Assembly: GCA_964016885.1 (NCBI GenBank)
Contig: OZ024744.1
Location: forward strand, 123,442,001 to 123,506,000
Direction of reading: 5' to 3'
Length of the DNA stretch: 64,000 nucleotides
DNA from: Eledone cirrhosa
Taxonomy: Eukaryota
Shown: piece after piece, positions 19,306 to 57,448 of the stretch
How the letters are laid out: each line of letters opens with the position of its first letter
Position numbering within the stretch: position 1 is the stretch's first letter
The notes under the pieces: model-generated
The model's database searches: none
Told to the model about the DNA's origin: nothing
The model's input: only the letters and a program-made list of their open reading frames with translations
Position numbers and translations under genes: made by a program

Positions 19306-21816
19306 GATACTATGCGGCTATAACATTTATGCATATTGTGCAAGGCTTATATCGACACATGATCAGGTTGGGTCCAAGTCTCTAGAACATTGTCCCATAT
19401 AATACTATGTGCACAGCTGCACATGTGTGTACGGATGGGAGGGTATTCATCAAGTATGCGCCCTCGATATGAACGTGCGCGGGTACATGTATGTATGTGC
19501 GTCCACGCAGATATGGGTGGATGTGTATAACGTTTAATTAATTATTTGCCGTTATGTAGGAATAGAATGGTTGACAAGTCAATGAAAGTAGATGAAATAG
19601 GAAGTAAAGTGATTTGTTACCGTTTCGAAGTTAGCTCGCAAGAGACCATGTTAGGGTTGCCAGGCGGACGCGCCTGGCCGAAAGGGCAAATGAGAGACAG
19701 AGAGCTGAAAGTTATTCCCTTGATAGGTGCTGGGACGGAAGTGACAAAAAGGGCTCTGCCACCCCAACGGGAAGCAACTCCAGCTACTTCCTTTTTAGAG
19801 AGCGTTACTCTATTGGTGATGTGCTCGTCACAACAAGGGAGGCAACTCTTGCTACATTATCTCCCGCCAGATTTTTAAAATATAAAAATCAAATGAAACA
19901 TGTATGGAGTAAGATGGCGAGCATGTAACAGGCATGAAAATTACGAAAAAAATAATGTTTGCAATAAAAGGAAAACAGCAAAAAATATGCATGCAAAAGT
20001 CAATGATAGATATCAAGGTAGCCAACCGCTCTTGGCCAGAGAACGACTGGACATCTATCTATCCGTCACTCAAAGATACAATGTAATCAAAGTAAAAGAA
20101 GAGGTCAAAGTTCAAATGTTCAAAATACAGTTCACGTGTGTGCAATCACATGACAGCAGGAAAGAAAGTGTGTTCCAGAGAATGTATGCAGGTGGTTTCT
20201 GGTCTGTGGTATAACGTGAAATTTCCAACCTCCGAAGGGAATTTCTCACAGGAAGAGTGCTGCAAAAATAAATTCTCTGGCTTGTTCTGCTGGTTTTGGT
20301 TGTTGATGAAGCTGTGTTGTTGTTGTCTCGCGGGAAATTTTCCTAGAAAAATTGGGTTGCGCAAAGTGCTAGAAATAACAGCCAAAGTTGATGGTCCATG
20401 TTGAGAATGCGTTGGCCTGGAAGGGTCAAGAGGCCAGCGACCAAAGAAATAAGCATTCTGAATAAATGCGCAGTTTTCAGCGGCAAATTTACGTGGTAAA
20501 TTTTTAAACCGGCAAATAGGAGAATATAGCTTAAGGCTGGAGAATCCTTGGCGAGAAACATTATCCCTGGCGTGTGGTTATCCCAGTGAGTCGAGATGTG
20601 TGCTGCCTACACGTGCCGAAACAAGGTTAAGTTGAGAAAAAAAAAAATTTCTATTCCGCGAGAAAATGGCGCGAAAATGATAGTGCAACAGGTCGTTGGC
20701 AGCCATTTTGAAAAATGTGTGTGTGAACGTGACAATATGATGAAAAGGAAAGAAAGACTTCACTTAGTATAACAAATATGGCGAGTTCAATTTTTTTTGT
20801 GAACGATGAAAAAAAAAAAAACTTGGTGGAAAGAATAAGCAATAGTTGAGATTCATCGAAAATGTTCAAGTTGAAATGTGTAAATTAAAAAAAAATCAAA
20901 TTTCTTTTCTTTTTTTTTTAAAGTATTCGTTGTAAGAAGAAACGAAAAACATATATATACATCCAGTGAAATGCGACACTTAGTTGATGTACGACACGTG
21001 CGTGAGAGAAAAAGAGTCTGTCTGAACGAGAATTTCACATGTGCGTGTGTTCGTTTCTGTGTCTGCGTATTTTACTAGTTTGTTAATAAAGTTTGCTGCG
21101 TATTCGAAATGTTGGTCGACACATTCCAACGAAAATGGGGTACTGCCAATTAATTTTCTTTTTTCCATACTCACACAACACCAGATTCTGCTATTTTTTT
21201 CTTTTTTCGGGGTCACCACTTATAACAAAATACTGGTGTGTATGAATATAACAAGAGACGTGGTTTGTGTATAACGTTTAATTAATTATTTGCCGTTATG
21301 TAGGAATAGAATGGTTGACAAGTCAATGAAAGTAGATGAAATAGGAAGTAAAGTGATTTGTTACCGTTTCGAAGTTAGCTCGCAAGAGACCATGTTAGGG
21401 TTGCCAGGCGGACGCGCCTGGCCGAAGGCCAGGAGCCGAAAGGGCAAATGAGAGATAGAGAGCTGAAAGTTATTCCCTTTAGATGTGCTGGGACGGAGGT
21501 GACAAAAAGGGCTCTGCCACCCCAACGGGAAGCAACTCCAGCTACTTCCTGTCTAGAGAGCGTTACTCTATTGGTGATGTGCTCGTCACAACAAGGGAGG
21601 AAACTCTTGCTACACATGTATCCGCGCACGCTCATATCGAGGGCACATACTTGATGAATACCCTCCCATCCGTACACACATGTGCAAGTGTGCACATGGT
21701 GCACATAGTATTATATGGGACAATGTTCTAGAGGCTTGGACCCAACCCGATCATGTGGCGATATAAGCCTGAAAGTGCATGCACAATATGCATAAATGTT
21801 ATAGCCGCATGGTATC
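19306..21816. repeat. ~190-bp inverted repeat arms (19306-19489 and 21615-21816) enclosing element N2
   Basis: GATACTATGCGGCTATAACATTTATGC...GCGCGGGTACATG is mirrored as CATGTATCCGCGC...GCATAAATGTTATAGCCGCATGGTATC. Confidence 0.9.
19522..21614 (-). mobile_element. Non-autonomous LTR retrotransposon N2
   Basis: LTRs 21221-21614 and ~19522-19856 (outer ~45 bp missing). PBS TGGTGACCCCG at 21208-21218, PPT CTGGCGGGAGATAA. The ~1.36-kb interior is homologous to N1 and N3. Confidence 0.9.
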
Positions 21817-44200: not shown

Positions 44201-44643
44201 ACACCTACATAACCTCTTTACAGTGTGTACTGGGTACATTTTGTCGTGACACACCTAAATGACCAGTTTTTAGTGTGTACTAGGTACTTTTTGTCATGAC
44301 TCCTACATGACTACTTTACAGTGTGTACTGGGTACTTTTTGTTGTGACACTTACATTACCACTTTACAGTGTAGAATGGGTACTTTTTGTTTTCGCACCT
44401 ACAGGACCACCTTACCATGGGTACGGGGTACTTTTTGTTGTTACACCTACATGATAACTTTAGAGTGTGTACTGTGTAATTTGTGTCATGACAACTACAT
44501 GACCACTTTACAGTGTGTACTGTGTACATGTTGTTGTGCCACAGCTACATGTCCACTTTATAGTGTGTGCTGGGTACTTTTTGTCATGAAACACACATGA
44601 GCGCTTTACAGTCTGTACTGGGTACTTTTTCTCATGACACCTA

Positions 44644-46831
44644 TGTAGCAGGAGTTGCCTCCCTTGTTGTGACACTCACATCCCTAATAGATTAACGCTC
44701 TCTAGACAGGAAGTAGAACCCTTTCTCTAACTTCCTGTCAGAACCCTATAAAACTAACAACGTTAAGCTATCTCGCTCTCATTCGCCTTTTCGGTCAGGC
44801 GCCTCCTGGCCTTCGCCAGGAGTCTTCACTCAGGTGTGTGTAACCCTGGCAACCAAGCGGTAACTAACAACTTTGTTTCATTCTTTCATCTATTCTTTGA
44901 CATGTCAACTATACTGTTCTATATATATCCACAAATTGTTTATTAAAAATTATACACACAAACCACTTCTCCTTGTTACATTCATACAACCCAGTATTTC
45001 GCTATAATTGGTGAACCCGACGTGATACGAACACGCAGCCGTTCATTGTTCTAAGTGGTGACCCCGAAAAAAGAAAAAAATAGCAGAATCTGGTGTTGTG
45101 TGAGTAACATTACGAATACACAGCAAAATTTTATTGACAAACTATGAAAATACACAACCAAGAAACGAACACACCACGCACATGTGAAATTCGCGTTCAG
45201 ACAGACTTTTTCTCTCACGCATCAACTAACTGTCGCATTTCACGATATATATATATATATGTTTCTCGTTTCTTACAACGAACACTTTAAAAACAAACAA
45301 ACAAACAAAAATAAATTTGATTTTTTTTTTTTTAAACATTACAACAGGAACATTTATTTTCGATGAACCTCAACCATTGCCTTTTTTTCATCGTTTTCTT
45401 CATCGTTCAAGTTTTTTTTCAAAGTTCACACCAGATATTAAAAAAAAAAATTGAACTCGCCATATTTGTTATGCTAAGTGAAGCCTTTCTTTCTTTTTCA
45501 TCATTGTCACTTTCACACACATTTTTTCAAAATGGCTGCCAACGACCTGTTGCACTATCATTTTCTCGCGCATTAGAAATATTATTTTTTCAACTTAACC
45601 TTGTTTTGGAACGTGTAGGATTCTCGATTCACTGAGATAGCCGCACGCCAGGGATAATGTTTCTCGCCAAGGATTCTCCAGCCTTAAGCTATATTCTCCT
45701 ATTTGCCGGTTTAAAAATTTACCACGTAAATTTGCCGCTGAAAACTGCGCATTTATTCAGAATGCTTATTTCTTTGGTCGCTGGCCTCTTGACCCTTCCA
45801 GGTCAACGCATTCTCAACATCGACCATCAACTTCGGCTGTTATTTCTAGCACTTTGCGCAACTCATTTTTTCTGAAAAAAATATTTTTACTGTGAACATC
45901 GAATACGCTCACTCCGCGAGACAACAACATCAACAGCAACACAGCTTCGTCAACAACCAAAACCAGCAGAACAAGCAAGAGAATTTATTTTTGCAGCACT
46001 CTTCCTGTGAGAAAATCCATTCGGAGGTTGGAAATTTCACGATATACCACAGAACAGAAACCACCTGCATACATTCTCTGGAACACACTTTCTTTCCTGC
46101 TGTCATGTGATTGCACACCTGTGAAATATATTTTGTACATTTGAACTTTGATCTCTTCTCTTACTTTCATGACATTGTATCTTTGGGTGATGGATAGATA
46201 GATGTCCAGTCGTTCTCTGGCCAAGAGCGGTTGGCTACCTTGATATCCATCATTGATTTTTGCAAACATTATTATATTTTTTCATAATTTTCATGCCTGT
46301 TACAACATTCTCGCCAACTTGCTACATACATATTTCATGCGATTTTTATATTTTAAAAATCTGGCGGGAAGTAATGTAGCAGGAGTTGCCTCCCTTGTTG
46401 TGACACTCACATCCCCAATAGATTAACGCTCTCTAGACAGGAAGTAGAACCCTTTCTGTAACTTTGGTCAGAACCCTATAAAACTAACAACGTTAAGCTA
46501 TCTCGCTCTCATTCGCCTTTTCGGTCAGGCGCGTCCTGGCCTTCGCCAGGAGTTTTCACTCAGGTGTGTGTAACCCTGGCAACCAAGCGGTAACTAATAA
46601 CTTTGTTTCATTCTTTCATCTATTCTTTGACATGTCAACTATACTGTTCTATATATATCCACAAATTGTTTATTAAAAATTATACACACAAACCACTTCT
46701 CCTTGTTACATTCATACAACCCAGTATTTCGCTATAATTGGTGAACCCGACGTGATACGAACACGCAGCCGTTCATTGTTATAAGTGGTGACCCCAAAAA
46801 AAGAAAAAACACACAAGCGTATTTTGCTATA
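44644..46831 (+). mobile_element. Non-autonomous LTR retrotransposon N3 in the satellite, with tRNA-extended LTRs
   Basis: Core LTRs 44644-45006 and 46375-46736. TSD CCTA (44640-44643 / 46832-46835). PPT at 46361-46374. Interior homologous to N2. Confidence 0.92.
45009..45040 (-). other. 32-nt copy of the tRNA-Trp 3' end including CCA (second copy at 46739-46770)
   Basis: Minus strand GGCTGCGTGTTCGTATCACGTCGGGTTCACCA versus recalled metazoan tRNA-Trp GGCTGCGTGTTCGAATCACGTCGGGGTCACCA. Confidence 0.85.
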
Positions 46832-49800: not shown

Positions 49801-51341
49801 AGTCGGTACTGGGTACTTTTTGTCGTGACACCTACATGACCATTTTACAGTGTGTAGTAAGGACTTTATGTCATGGCACCTACATGATCTGTTTTCAGTG
49901 TGTACTGGGTACGTTTACTTGTGACATGTACATGACCACTTTACAGTGTGTACTGGGTACCTTTTGTTGTGACATACCTACATGACCACTTTATAGTATG
50001 GGTGTGTGATTTTTTGGTGACACCTACATGACCAATTGATAGTGTGTACTGGGTACTTTTTGTTGTGTCACCTACATGACCACTTTACAGTATGTACTGT
50101 GTGCTTTTTGTATGACACCTACATGACCACTTTACAGTATGTACTGGGTACTTTTTGTGTGACACCTACATGATTACTTTACAGTGTGTACTGGGTACTT
50201 TTTGTTGTGACACCTACATGACCACTTTACAGTGTGGACTGGGTACTTTTAGTTGTGATACCTGCATGCCCACTTTACAGTTTAGGAGATTAGTATCGGT
50301 GTACATATAAATTTATTACAAAAGAAAATAAATGCCCGTGTGTGTTGTGATAATGTTTTTACTTCATAGAAGTCAAAGGTATTAATATAAATGAATCCTT
50401 ACCCGTGGATCACAACTCCAGGCTGAAGTGTGTAGAGAAAAGGAGAGATCTTTTCTAGCTGGTGTTACCATCTTCATAGTCTCTTAGGCTGCCGGTTGCA
50501 TTCTTCTTGGAGGCGAAGGATTATGAGAAAGGAATCATCTCATGCTAAGGTCGCAGGTGTTACTACTTTGGATTTCAGCAGGCGAGAGAGAAAGATTGTC
50601 CTGACCTGTTCCTTTTATAGGGTCTGACCGGAAGTGACCAACAGGGAGTCTGTCAACCCCAAAGGGAAGCAACTCCAACTACTTCCTGTCTAGAGAGCGG
50701 TGATGAAATTGTCATGACAAGGGAGGAATCTCTTGCTACATTTCCCCCCGCCAGATTTTAAAAACATAAAAATCGAATGAAGCATGCATGGAGTAAGATG
50801 GCGAGCATGTAAGAGGCATGAAAATTATGATACAATGTAATAAAAGTAAGAGAATAGGTCAAAGTTCAAAATACAGTTAACATGTGTGCAATCACATGAC
50901 AGCAGGAAAGAATGTGTTCCAGAGAATGAATGTATGTGGTTTCTGGTCTGTAGTATAACGTGAAATTTCCAACTTCCGAAGGGAATTTCTCACAGGAAGA
51001 GTGCTGCAGAAATAAATTCACTTGCTTGTTCTGCTGGTTTTGGTTGTTGATGAAGCTGTGTTGTTGTTGTTGATGTTGTGAATGCGTTGACCTGGAAGGG
51101 TCAAGAGGCCAGTGACCAGAGAAATAAGCATTCTGAATAAATGCGCAGTTTTCAACGGCAAATTTACGTGGTAAATTTATAAACCGGCAAATAGAAGAAT
51201 ATAGCTTAAAATGTTCGTTGTAAAAGGAAACGAAAAACATATATATACATCCAGTGAAATGGTAATGATAGGTACATTGTAATACAATAAATCAATAAAT
51301 AACAAGAACAGCAAAAAAAATATAAGGCTCCAGTGGCCAGT

Positions 51342-54300
51342 TCACATAAAAATAGTTTGGCAGAATAGTTTGGGCCAGTGGACTCTCCGACCGGAACGGG
51401 TCGTAGTCTTGTATGTAGGTGAAGGTGGGGCAGAAGGAGCAGGTGTATGCACAAGAGAGAAAGATTGGGGTATTTGTGGCTCGGGTGTATGAGCGTCATT
51501 GTGTGCCCTTTTCAGTCTATCCATTGAAATTGTCTCTCTGGACCCTTAACGTCTACAGTGAAATGTTTGTCAGTACGTGATAACACACGGTAGGGTCCAG
51601 AGTATGGTTATGTGAGGGGTGGTCTCACAGCATCGTTCCTTACGAGCACATGGGTCCACGAGGCAATATCCCTCGGTACCGCAGGTTTTACAGTTTGTTT
51701 CCTCGTATTCATCGGCGGCAGGTCCTGAAAATAAGAACGCAGACGGGATACGTAGGAAAGCGGATCTTGGAAAGCAAGATCAACAGGAGCAAGCATTTGC
51801 CCAGGCAACGCTAGAGGAGCACCGTAAAGTAATTCGGCCGGTGAGAACCCAAGGTCGTCCTTTATTGATGAACGAATTCCTAATAACACAATAGGAAGGT
51901 ACTCGCTCCAACGTTGAGAGTCTGGATAGGCGCGAAGAGCGGCCTTTATTTGGCGGTGGAATCGTTCCACCATTCCATTTGAAGCAGGATGATAGGCTGT
52001 GGTCCGAATCCGTTGAGCTCCAATTATTTTTGTGAGCTCAGAGAAGAGATGGGACTCGAATTGTCTACCACGGTCTGTGGTGAGTGTAGTTGGTACCCCA
52101 AAGCGGGTAATCCACCCTGATACCAGGGCACGTGCTACAGTCCCAACAGTCATATCTTGTAAAGGGTTGGCTTCAGGCCATCGCGAAAAACGATCGACAC
52201 AGGTCAATATGTATGAATATCCATTGCTGAATGGCCAAGGTCCAACAATGTCAATGTGGATGTGTTGAAACCGAGCATCTAGAGTACTGAAAGTACCAAG
52301 TGGAGTCCGGATGTGTCTATGGATCTTCGATTTCTGGCAAGCGATGCAGGAACGGCACCAAGCAACAATGTCGCGCCTCATATTAGGCCAGAAGAATCTG
52401 GCTGTTATGAGCTTTACTGTGGCAGCAGATCCTGGGTGAGAAATGTTGTGCAAAGCCAGGAACACAATTCGACGGTGAGTCTCAGGAACAAGTGGTCGTG
52501 GTGCATCAGTAGATACATCACATAGAATCTGCCTGTCGGTAGTGGATACGGGCAGATATTTGAAAATGCAAGTCGCAAATTCAGCAGAAAGAGTGTCCAA
52601 CGATTGGAGTGCAGGTTGGTCTGCAGCTAAACGACCTAAGTCGATCTCCTGGGATGACGAGATGGAGCTAATTGGCAAACGTGACAATGCGTCTGCAACT
52701 ATGTTGTGCGAGCCGGCAATGTGCTGGATATCGTTTGTAAATTGTGAAACGTAGTCCAGGTGCCTTGTCTCTCTGGGCGAATATCTGTCGGCTTTGGCCC
52801 TCAAAGCGAAGGTCAACGGTTTGTGGTCGGTAAAAACTGTAAAATTTCTCCCCTCAAGAATATGAGAGAAATGTTTCACCGACAGATATATGGCTAATAA
52901 TTCCCGCCCAAACGCGTTTCTGCTGGTTTCAGCTTCCTCGAGAAAAATGCCAAAGGTGGTTGGTTTTCAGCGTAGGACTGGTGTAAAACTGCTCCCACAG
53001 CGGTATCAGATGCATCAACACAAAGCGAAAGCTTGGCCTCTGGTACCGGGTGGGCTAGCAAAGATGAACTAGCGAGTGCTGTCTTGGCAGACTGGAAGTC
53101 TTGAAGCTGTCCTTGTGTCAAGGAAATGTCTTCATTCTTGTTACGACGATTTTTTAAAATGTCAGTAAGAGAAGATAGCAAATTAGCACAATGAGGAACG
53201 AAACGCCTATAGATATTGATTAGGCCTAAGAAGTGACGCAACTGGTGGAGTGTAGTAGGCGGAGGTAACTCCTGTATGGTTTGAACTCGCTGAGGGAGCG
53301 GCCTAATACCTTCGGCGTCGATGAGGTGGCCTAAAAAATTTAGGGAAGTGGAACCGAAAACACACTTTGCAGGATTCACGCGAACGCGGTAATCCTGAAG
53401 TCGCCGATATAAGAGAAGCATGTGGCGCATATGCTCTTCCGGAGAGGAACTAACGACGAGAATATCGTCTATGTAAGCATAAACGAGGTCCAGACCACGC
53501 GTGACCTCGTCTATGAACCGCTGAAAAGTGCTAGCGGCGTTCCTGAGTCCGAAAGGCATGGTCAAAAATTCGAAGCATCCGAAAGGGGTTGTAATCGCCG
53601 TTTTCGGAATATCCTCCTTCCTGACCGGAATTTGGTGGTAGGCTCGCACTAAATCTAACTTAGAAAAAATCTTTCACCCCTGCAGTGAAGATGCAAAATC
53701 GTGGAGATGGGGAATGGGATACCTATCCGGGACGGTCATGGCATTTAACCTCCTATAATCCCCAGTGGGTCTCCAGTCGCCGCAAGTCTTGGGCACCATG
53801 TGTAACGGGGAAGCCCAAGGACTCGTAGATGGGCGAATAATTCCCAGCTGCAGCATATGGTCGAACTCGGACCGTGCTGCCTTTAATTTTTCCGTCGGTG
53901 AGCGGCGTGGACGCGAAAACACTGGAGCACCGGTGGTGGAAACGAAATGTTCGGTCGAGTGTGTTGGGGCAGTGACTCGAAAATTTCCATCCGTGAGCTC
54001 CGGGAAAGAACCCAGCAACGAATGGTAGACGTCTCCAGCGGCAGCGATGAAGAATATGGGGATGACTGTTGGAGAATTGGCTTCCTGGCAATGAATTGAA
54101 AAGCCGGTGATGTTATCCACCAGGCGTTGGCCACGGACGTCCACAGTTAAAGAGAAGTTGTGGAGGAAATCCGCTCCTAAGATGGGATATGGCAAATCGG
54201 CAACCGTAAAAATCCACTTAAAATCCCTTCGAAGATTTAGGAATTTGAGAGGAAGCGAGATTTGCCCGTACGTCTTTATAGACGAGTGGTTAACTGCCTG

Positions 54301-54858
54301 CAGCATAACAGATGACTCTGTAGCAGTTGCCTCCCTTGTTGTGACGCACAACCCCAATAGATTAACACCATCTAGACAGGAAGTAGAACCCTTTCTGTAA
54401 CTTCCGGTCAGAACCCTATAAAACTAACAACTTTAAGTTCTCACTCTCTCATTCGCCTTTTCGGTCAGGCGCCTCCTGGCTTTCGCCAGGAGTCTTTATC
54501 CAGGCGCCTTCTGCCAGCCACGTTCGTTTGGCAATCAAACGGTAACTAATAACTTTGCTTCATTCTTTCATTTATTTCTTTGACATGTTAACTATACTGT
54601 TCTATATATATCCATGATTGTTAATTAAATATTATACACACAAACAATGTCTATTTTGTTACATTCATACAACCCAGTTTTCCGCTATAACTCTATGGGG
54701 GTATCTTTCACGCAATAGACTGGCCAAATACTACAGGAGGCTCCTGTATCCACGAGGAAACCCCTTCCGGACATTAGGTCCTTAATGAAGAAATGGCGGT
54801 TTGGTGGCTTTATGTTGAGGTCAGCTGTCCCCATCAGCGGACCTCTTAGGCGTTTCCC
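51342..54858 (-). pseudogene. pol: Element E pol (PR-RT-RH-IN), frameshifted and split by a solo LTR
   Basis: [51 protein letters not shown] and TRSGRRVHWP. Confidence 0.93.
54319..54689 (+). mobile_element. Solo LTR (N3 type) inserted in the protease of E
   Basis: TGTAGCAG...GCTATA with TSD ACTC (54315-54318 / 54690-54693). Similar to 44644-45006. Confidence 0.92.
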
Positions 54859-55640
54859 GCCTTATGAAAGGAGCAAGGTTGCACGCAGTGATTCGCGTTC
54901 TCAGCAAATCGCTCGTGGTACCAGCATAAAGATGAAGCTGGTGATTTAGAACGACGTCTAAAACTTTACGATCTCCCGCGACTGCGGGGGTGCGAACGGG
55001 CACCACACAAGGCCTTCATCTTGTGGAGCTCTATGGTGAGTTCCTGAATGGACCTTTGCATCGCCATAATGGTTGCGCTGTCTATTGGCGCTGCCGCGTA
55101 GATCGCATGGCCGTGTGTGGCCCGAGCTGGGTGGTGAACAGCGGCAAGGGGGTCGCTGCCTCCGACATTTGTCACCTCCAAAACTTTGTCCGCAGAGGCG
55201 GCAAGCTGATCCACCGTGCTTGTATCCCTCATGGGGGCTAAAATTGCCTGTACTTTGGTCTGCAGGCGCAAGAAGAACAACTGCTTCAGCAGGGCAGTTT
55301 CCGCTACCGACCCCTCCGTTAGGTCCTTCTTTCGCCTTAGGAGGTTCGATGGGGTGTCATCCCCTATATGCTCCAGATGGACCAAGGCCCTAAATCTTTT
55401 TTCTGAAGACTGTTCTGTCCGGCTGAGTATTTTAGCCTTCAGAGACGTGTACGTCGAGTCTGTGGGTGTCTCTAACACCAGGTCCTTAATCGCTAGGAGA
55501 AATGCCGGCGGAATTGCGCTAAGGACCACAGGACGTTGTAGTTCCTCGTCAATTCTGTTCGCCTTGAAAAATGCTTCGAGTTGGGCGAACCATAGCCTTA
55601 CGTCGCCCGTGTACGTTGGCAGAACAGAGTGAGAAGCCAT
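54846..55640 (-). pseudogene. gag: Element E gag
   Basis: LPTYTGDVRLWFAQLEAFF, and knuckle CWYHERFAENANHCVQPC at ~54878-54931. Confidence 0.9.
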
Positions 55641-57448
55641 TGGTATACCGTAGGTAATTTACCGTTTGGAAAAATGTCTCTAACGCAACAGAAAAGGAAA
55701 ACAAAATCGCTTATTTTTCCCTGTCAAACCACTGGACCGGAAAAATAATGCATCCAGGATAATATGCAAAAAAGCGATTAAGTGAATGCTGCTATTACTA
55801 AGGTAAGGGCAAGGAACTTTAAAAAAAAAATCCAACATGGCGGACTATTTTGCGCCAAAAACACTAATGATGGACAAGAGAGACTCCATCTTGTCATCCT
55901 CAAAAATGTTTAGCCAGAGAAGGGTAGGGCAGAAAAGGAGAGAAAAAAAAGGCAAAAACATTCATACAATTGCTGTTTGTTTGTGTGTCAATAATTGTAG
56001 GTGTTCGTTTTGTATTAAATTGTTATTTTTTTTAATTTTTCTTCTGTTATTTTTTTCTCTATATACACCGTATACCATTTCCCATTTTTAAAAATTTTTT
56101 TTTAAAATCACGTCGGGGGTCACCACTTTAGGAGATTAGTATCGGTGTACATATAAAATTATTACAAAAGACAATAAATGCCGGTGTGTGTTGTGATAAT
56201 ATTTTTATTTCACAGAAGTCAAAGGGATTAATATAAATGAATCGTTACCCGTGGATCACAACTCCAGGCTGAAGTGTGTAGAGAAAAGGAGAGATCTTTT
56301 CTAGCTGGTGTTAACATCTTCTAAGGTTCTTTGGCTGCTGGTGGCATCCTTCTTGGTGGCGAAGGATTATGAGAAAGGAATCATCTCATGCTAAAGTCGC
56401 GGGTGTAACCACTTTGGATTTCAGGAAGCGAGAGAGAAAGATTGTCCTGACCTGTTCCTTTTATAGGGTCTGACCGGAAGTGACCAACAGGGCGTCTGTC
56501 AACCCCAAAGGGAAGCAACTCCAGCTACTTCCTGTCTAGAGAGCGGTGATGAGATTGTCATGACAAGGGAGGCAACTCTTGCTACGACAGTGTGGACTGG
56601 GTATCTTTTGTTGTGACACCTACATGATCACTTTACAGTGTGTACTGAGTAATTTTTGCTTGACACCTGCATGACCAATTTATAGTGTGCAATGTGGGCT
56701 TTTTGTTGTGACACCTACATGACCACTTTACTGTGAGTACTGGGTAATTTTGTTGTGACAACTACATGACCATGTTACAGTGTGGACAGGATGCCTTTTG
56801 TTGAGACACCTATATGACGACTCTACAGTGTGTACTGTGTACTTTTTGTCATGAGACCTACATGACCACTTTACAGTGTGTACTGGGTACTTTTTGTTGT
56901 GACACCTACATGACCACTTTATAGTGTAGGGTGGGTGATTTTTTTTGGTGACACCTTCATGATCAGTTAACAATGTGTATTGGGTGCTTTTTGTTGTGAC
57001 ACCTACATGACCACTTTAGTGTCTACTGGGTACTTTTTGTCATGACACCTACATAACCACCTTACAGTGGTATCATTATAAGAAGTGATTGCGACTCTTA
57101 GGCGCTAAAACAGCCAAGTAACCTCACAAGTATCACCTAACAGCTCTGTAGACAAATTGCTACCAATGACAAAATATACAAGTTAACAAATAGGTTAAGA
57201 AGACCTAAATTATTCGCAAATTACACTCACATTTTATGACATATCAAAGTCATCACAGTATAACGAACATTTTACTACACTAGCACGGGTTGGACAGATT
57301 GTACTATTTGAGGCAAGTCAGGTCAGATGACCGTGTCTTACTCATATAGATGTTTCTCGCTTGGTTTCTACAAATAAATGCCCATCCTAACGCCAACTAT
57401 ATTTACAGTATGTACAGCGTACTTTTTGCAATGACACCTTCATGACCA

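Follow-up and report, generated by a model that had tools for sequence, protein, structure and literature searches.

The element under study is a 2.19-kb non-coding Gypsy-type retrotransposon at positions 44644-46831 of the window, that is, of the whole 64,000-nucleotide stretch of Eledone cirrhosa DNA that was analysed. It sits in a long array of a 48-bp satellite, which spans window positions 28755-63831 and hosts several LTR insertions. The features of the element and of related elements in the window are the following.

21207..21614, minus strand: related LTR followed by a short 11-nt PBS only (non-extended state)
44640..44643, plus strand: left TSD, CCTA, within the 48-bp satellite array
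44644..45006, plus strand: 5' core LTR, 363 bp, TGTAG...CTATA
45009..45040, plus strand: 32-nt copy of mature tRNA-Trp positions 76-45 (PBS1 plus a 14-nt overshoot), from comparison with host genes
45041..45053, plus strand: first LTR-end stub, 13 nt, resembling family LTR ends; putative landing site of the founding plus-strand jump
45056..45066, plus strand: second PBS, 11 nt, equal to the short PBS of non-extended relatives, then an A-run
45067..46361, plus strand: non-coding internal region, parts of which are 87-95% alike to 50829-51209
46362..46374, plus strand: polypurine-tract-like site (PPT) upstream of the 3' LTR, at the same place in relatives
46375..46736, plus strand: 3' core LTR, 362 bp, TGTAG...CTATA, 97.8% identical to the 5' LTR
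46739..46770, plus strand: second 32-nt tRNA-Trp copy, with both mismatches as in the first (46745, 46757)
46771..46809, plus strand: stub, second PBS (46786-46795) and A-run, copied from the leader
46810..46831, plus strand: 22-nt terminal LTR end of sister-subfamily type; its junction occurs once in the genome
46832..46835, plus strand: right TSD, CCTA
51608..55658, minus strand: broken coding Gypsy element, a candidate partner lineage, with a DUF7041 gag, CX2HX9CX3C, RT, RNase H and integrase; PBS at 56125 (minus strand)
54319..54689, plus strand: related solo LTR, TSD ACTC, 85% alike, inserted in the coding element

Each LTR of the element is followed, in the same order, by AT, the 32-nt tRNA-Trp copy, the 13-nt stub, AG and the second PBS. 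The original prediction, made from the window sequence, had placed AT and a tRNA-Trp complement of this length behind both LTRs, with an LTR-like end and a second PBS behind each, and the coordinates are confirmed (second PBS at 45056 and 46786). The core LTRs agree at 355 of 363 positions, and the whole repeat with its extension at 426 of 437. The internal region includes no stop-to-stop frame longer than 99 aa, and the TSD keeps the register of the 48-bp satellite. Compared with a host tRNA-Trp gene to which CCA is added, both tRNA copies agree at 30 of 32 positions. The first mismatch common to them is the predicted A opposite tRNA position 58 (45027, 46757). The second, which the prediction had missed, is an A opposite position 70 (45015, 46745); because this private change is present in both copies in the window, both derive from one leader. 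Reversed control patterns gave no matches across the genome, so the captured structure is not a product of chance. Neither the window nor any of 30 overshoot loci yielded a tRNA gene with ARAGORN, indicating that the tRNA copies are not genes.

The junction between tRNA copy and stub has 642 matches in the genome (one mismatch allowed), and the short-PBS relatives have 70 (exact); both numbers are lower bounds and are not comparable with each other. The proposal that a read-through copy of the primer was fixed and replicated is upheld by these junction matches. They are dispersed and have separate TSDs, so the structure is not a local duplication confined to this locus, the outcome that the prediction had named as counting against it. 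Of the loci examined, 130 in all with one counted twice (L175, L274), 84 could be resolved and 44 could not, while 2 lacked the junction. In the 84 copies whose LTR start and PPT were resolved, the extension is never found behind the 3' LTR (0/84), and 72 have a matching TSD. Because the extension is absent from the 3' end in all of these copies, the capture is a 5' leader trait of the family and not its standard LTR end. The claim that the captured piece became part of an extended LTR therefore applies to the copy in the window and to a few relatives, but not to the family.

The relatives in the window at 21218 and 4171 (both minus strand) have a PBS of only 10-11 nt and a similar leader start, and are thus informative controls. 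The solo LTR at 54319-54689, to which the original prediction had pointed, does lack the extension, but it is uninformative as a control, because solo LTRs normally occur without a PBS. Short-PBS relatives are older than extended copies: the median identity of their LTR pairs is 94.8% (n=10) and 95.4% (n=7), versus 97.0% for extended copies with the old stub (n=35) and 99.4% for those with the young stub (n=72). In a tree of the downstream leader, a branch with support 95/86 splits 9 of 11 short copies from all extended copies, and the two other short copies sit on long branches. This tree is unrooted, comprises 78 rows with 20 of the 76 young copies, and has rough support values from a bootstrap that had not settled. 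The simplest reading of these sequences would be a single origin from a short-PBS ancestor.

We consider it probable that the family's 32-nt copy was made once, when plus-strand strong-stop synthesis continued past A58 and then jumped to an LTR end. In an ancestor with an 11-nt PBS, the plus strand would have been extended along the primer as far as position 45 before landing 13 nt inside the LTR end, with LTR, tRNA copy, LTR-end stub, old PBS and leader as the resulting order. We know of no modification at position 45 that could be pointed to as the cause of this end. The new leader then spread by ordinary insertion, with 4-bp TSDs and 3' LTRs that lack the extension, as seen in the resolved copies. 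Subsequently, the new 18-nt site would have become the main primer site, with position 58 inherited and not copied again, while the old PBS decayed in younger copies. The second PBS is indeed decayed in young copies, and the youngest copies have a perfect 18-nt PBS1 and retain A58 (36 copies, median 99.85%). This combination is consistent with normal stopping at position 58 in later cycles. Among 100 junction matches listed, position 58 is A in 98, G in 2 and T in none. No family copy with T58 was found in the 40 of 41 non-A matches that were read, in a search whose pattern misses copies primed by A57 tRNAs.

Among young copies, the commonest PBS1 allele differs from tRNA-Trp at two positions (41 of 60 copies, L255-L314), which sits oddly with a role as the main primer site. 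In a search for a host isodecoder matching this allele, one gene (L336) explains the change at position 67, and none was found for the change at position 72. One idea is that the allele escapes silencing by tRNA fragments. Other observations concern the LTRs of the family. The 5-6 nt before the last bases of the LTR vary strongly even between very young copies, and the stub and the LTR end changed together between older and younger copies. At L144, the extended leader is behind an LTR of another family, and at L356 sequence resembling gag (read by eye) adjoins a short PBS and an LTR of family type; both are signs of recombination between co-packaged RNAs.

Extended LTRs with independent TSDs, for which the prediction had called, do occur, but as a minority form. 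The extension is present at both ends, with the TSD directly after the stub, at six two-LTR loci and two solo loci (L127, L315-L319, and the solos L238 and L242), each with its own 4-bp TSD. Searches for junctions lacking the leader's AG returned 16 and 7 matches, and the remaining matches are tandem units or small leader changes, L147 apart. In two extended-LTR copies the repeats are identical at 344 of 345 positions, and at L127 the 5' and 3' tRNA copies differ at two bases. Four of the two-LTR copies have a single 5' unit, the outcome that would be expected of priming from the second PBS. The other two have a doubled unit, as would be expected of slippage from the LTR end to the stub. A tRNA-copy-plus-stub module of 46-47 nt is also found in tandem, in 2-4 units, at L127, L129, L149, L169, L171, L173, L181, L319 and L321-L324. 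Second-PBS priming or minus-strand slippage would account for both the LTRs lengthened by a tRNA copy and the tandem units, and such lengthening could have been repeated because the stub resembles an LTR end.

The copy in the window has 58 further nucleotides before its TSD, unlike the other extended LTRs. Behind the stub of the second repeat there are only 24 nt of leader, comprising the second PBS and the A-run, and the 22-nt LTR end. The extra PBS and 21-bp LTR-end stub that had been described within a TSD-bounded right end are borne out in their layout, but the stub is 22 nt long (46810-46831). A third LTR and a second internal region, as in a tandem-array TRIM or a three-LTR complex, are not present at the right end. 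The last 13 nt are identical to 8 of the 94 distinct LTR ends compared, and every one of the 271 satellite monomers is 4 or more edits away, which identifies the right end as an LTR end and rules out a satellite origin of the stub. The 22-nt terminus is nearest, at 3 edits, to the LTR ends of sister copies and not to the element's own. Its junction is unique in the genome, and a layout of this general kind is also found at L173 (TSD ATCT) and, internally, at L149. Four sequencing runs were consulted on the right end: of three contig sets from the same sample, one gave coverage of 46811-46819, and the junction is spanned by no piece among those listed.

We somewhat favour an early minus-strand jump between co-packaged RNAs as the source of this right end. 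The minus strand would have started on a sister RNA and, after copying 13-22 nt of the sister's LTR end, switched to the A-run that follows the second PBS, thereby bringing leader sequence into the 3' terminal repeat. The original prediction had instead suggested a collapsed tandem unit, in which an LTR-internal-LTR-internal-LTR array lost its second unit from the A-run to the last 22 nt. Such a collapse is a serious but less likely possibility. It would explain why the 3' repeat continues through the second PBS and A-run just like the 5' leader, why the private change at position 70 is in both copies, and why the junction is unique; moreover, a single change of CpG type separates the last 13 nt from the LTR end of the element itself. 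However, the full 22-nt end is closest to the LTR ends of sister copies, and a random deletion would not favour the layout of an A-run start and a 7-13-nt LTR end that recurs at L173 and L149. On balance, the right end is better accounted for by a jump between templates in the course of reverse transcription.

Because A58 in the family reflects one event, a test of its relation to m1A must come from other overshoot events. Outside the family, 55 overshoot contexts of 27-52 nt were found behind many LTR types, of which 34 are singles and the rest belong to two more amplified families, with 16 and 5 copies. Several of them likewise end in an LTR-end stub. A position-unbiased set comprises 38 overshoot copies from outside the family, five of which were tallied from the match listing, with the A57/G57 ambiguity allowed for. 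In this set position 58 is not T in 6 of 38 copies (three A, two G, one C), compared with 13 of 760 at other non-CpG sites (Fisher p=1.3e-4), and the background at other A/T sites is 3 of 418. Position 58 is the most variable of the 35 positions. When one amplified family is collapsed, the count is 5 of 34 (p=1.0e-3) or 4 of 34 (p=6.6e-3, or 0.23 if corrected for 35 positions). The premise that read-through at m1A58 causes misincorporation needs correcting: wrong bases are found in 6 of 38 copies, but the other 32 have the correct T, derived either from unmodified primers or from an RT that inserted T opposite m1A, so that misincorporation is not the usual outcome.

A parallel signal is found at G37. 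Among single overshoot copies of at least 35 nt, 23 of 28 end at 35-42 nt and none at 43-47. Three of the five copies that pass G37 have a wrong base opposite it, and one skips across it. Signatures resembling m1G37 are present at L337, L225, L091, L094, L095 and L056. Errors and stops thus occur at positions that would be modified on the Watson-Crick face (6/38 at position 58 and 3/5 at G37). The modification m1G37 is widely occurring, according to passages of PMC10275265, and from this we infer that it is present on the host tRNA-Trp. The genome therefore likely holds a record of both m1A58 and m1G37 of tRNA-Trp, as far as can be judged from genomic sequence.

The two further families differ in their captured copies. 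The second is coding, with a CX2HX9CX3C gag and TSD GATC, and is represented by L334 (G000:C1:163266000-163274000) and 15 similar loci; its fixed 32-nt tRNA-Trp copy ends at position 45, has T58 and is followed by a different junction. The third (L102, L193, L196, L333, L087) has a 39-40-nt copy and then an LTR-end-like stub. Position 58 is T in three of its copies and A in two, and this family may re-copy the position. In two sequencing runs with other organism labels (X5, X6), searches with window positions 45002-45040 found contigs with 29-38-nt matches to the tRNA copy and other flanks. These contigs have no listed difference at 45027, make up a small share, and come from seeding that favours the A form.

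With the excess of wrong bases at position 58 in other overshoot copies, the predicted origin of A58 in the family becomes likely: the sequence comparisons suggest that the founder's A was quite probably a misincorporation opposite m1A. It is unlikely, given the same primer capture, that this A arose independently of m1A, as an ordinary founder mutation or from a tRNA gene with T58. An ordinary mutation would suit a single founding event, a window copy that has another ordinary mismatch at position 70, and the T in most overshoot copies. However, it would not predict that position 58 is the most variable position with all three wrong bases seen, nor the parallel signal at G37. As for a T58 source, a pattern for tRNA-Trp genes with N at position 58 had 59 matches, of which 41 lie in clusters of genes on a single contig, and ARAGORN called tRNA-Trp in 23 of 30 loci examined. 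One cluster has 36 matches within 353.39-353.49 Mb of G000:C4, mostly with A57 and one with T58. A host gene with T58, which the prediction had regarded as decisive against it, therefore exists, but this single cluster gene carries A57 where family copies read G57, and 40 of the 41 clustered matches have A58.

A DNA-level origin of the tRNA sequence, by recombination from a tRNA gene or tRNA-derived repeat, is highly improbable, as is a double end produced by local duplication or misassembly, and for the family such readings are largely refuted. On the side of an assembly error, no independent reads clearly crossed the junction at the right end. Against these readings, the copies are contiguous with CCA, which does not follow the host tRNA-Trp genes that were read, 27-52-nt copies are found behind many different LTR ends, the 642 junction matches are dispersed with separate TSDs, and in the window the two repeats differ by 2.5% and the TSD keeps the satellite register.

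The preferred reading, that plus-strand strong-stop DNA was over-extended on a tRNA-Trp primer, accords with the structures themselves, each of which is a copy of mature primer with CCA that is contiguous with an LTR end and extends beyond position 58. Rearrangement of proviral ends by tRNA insertions or strand-transfer errors was reportedly described by Pulsinelli and Temin in 1991 and by Colicelli and Goff in 1986; those are said to have been single-round laboratory products, unlike the inherited and amplified family trait found here. In HIV-1 and HTLV-1, m1A58 is the normal plus-strand stop, and passages of PMC13191261, PMC8599865 and PMC11251516 report minor longer products, one of which stops at modified base 37. 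Most long copies in this genome similarly end near position 37. The same passages describe the long viral products as unable to complete strand transfer and integrate, whereas long products here were integrated and one founded a family of hundreds. The primer over-extension sequence of lentiviruses and spumaviruses, as presented in passages of PMC13191261, serves products that end around positions 55-54. As in those viruses, element sequence beside the PBS matches the primer past position 58, but here the match is 14 nt long, reaches position 45, has the wrong base at 58, and is followed by a stub and second PBS.

The CsRn1 clade of Ty3/Gypsy elements, including PwRn1 and AgCR, is characterized in passages of PMC2582038 by a tRNA-Trp PBS, a 4-bp TSD and a CX2HX9CX3C gag. 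The element, a candidate non-autonomous derivative of this clade, has the tRNA-Trp PBS and a 4-bp TSD (CCTA), is non-coding, and has LTRs that end in TATA. The coding elements in the window and at L334 have the CX2HX9CX3C gag, with RT, RNase H and integrase in Gypsy order (Pfam domains). The passages on CsRn1 mention no extended or doubled PBS in their text, the PBS figure apart (PMC2582038). In RNA-seq with a laboratory enzyme, read-through of m1A leaves mismatches and sometimes the correct T, as passages of PMC4787781 indicate. There, m1A followed by A gave a low C signal, whereas 2 of the 6 wrong bases here correspond to C, in small numbers. In a literature search that had most subscription papers and supplements outside its reach, we found neither a fixed primer overshoot in a retrotransposon family nor modification signatures read from genomic overshoot copies. 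What the analysis brings out is an active non-coding Gypsy family in which an overshoot of the primer became fixed, whose LTRs were extended repeatedly, and which probably preserves a trace of tRNA methylation.

A long overshoot past m1A58, which has been described as a dead end for retroviruses, has here been integrated and inherited and now numbers hundreds of copies; an overshoot of their own is also fixed in two other families of this genome. Elements of this kind have implications for annotation, since programs that call PBSs and LTR ends will misplace their ends. Primer overshoot provides a route by which LTR elements gain primer sites and shift their LTR ends, and independent overshoot copies form an in vivo record of how Gypsy RT handles modified tRNA bases. 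We tentatively suggest that the overshoot may have been a creative step, in which a new primer site arose before the family's largest burst and the stub-plus-PBS module rebuilds LTR ends, and that m1A58 and m1G37 of germ-line tRNAs might be read and dated from genome assemblies alone.
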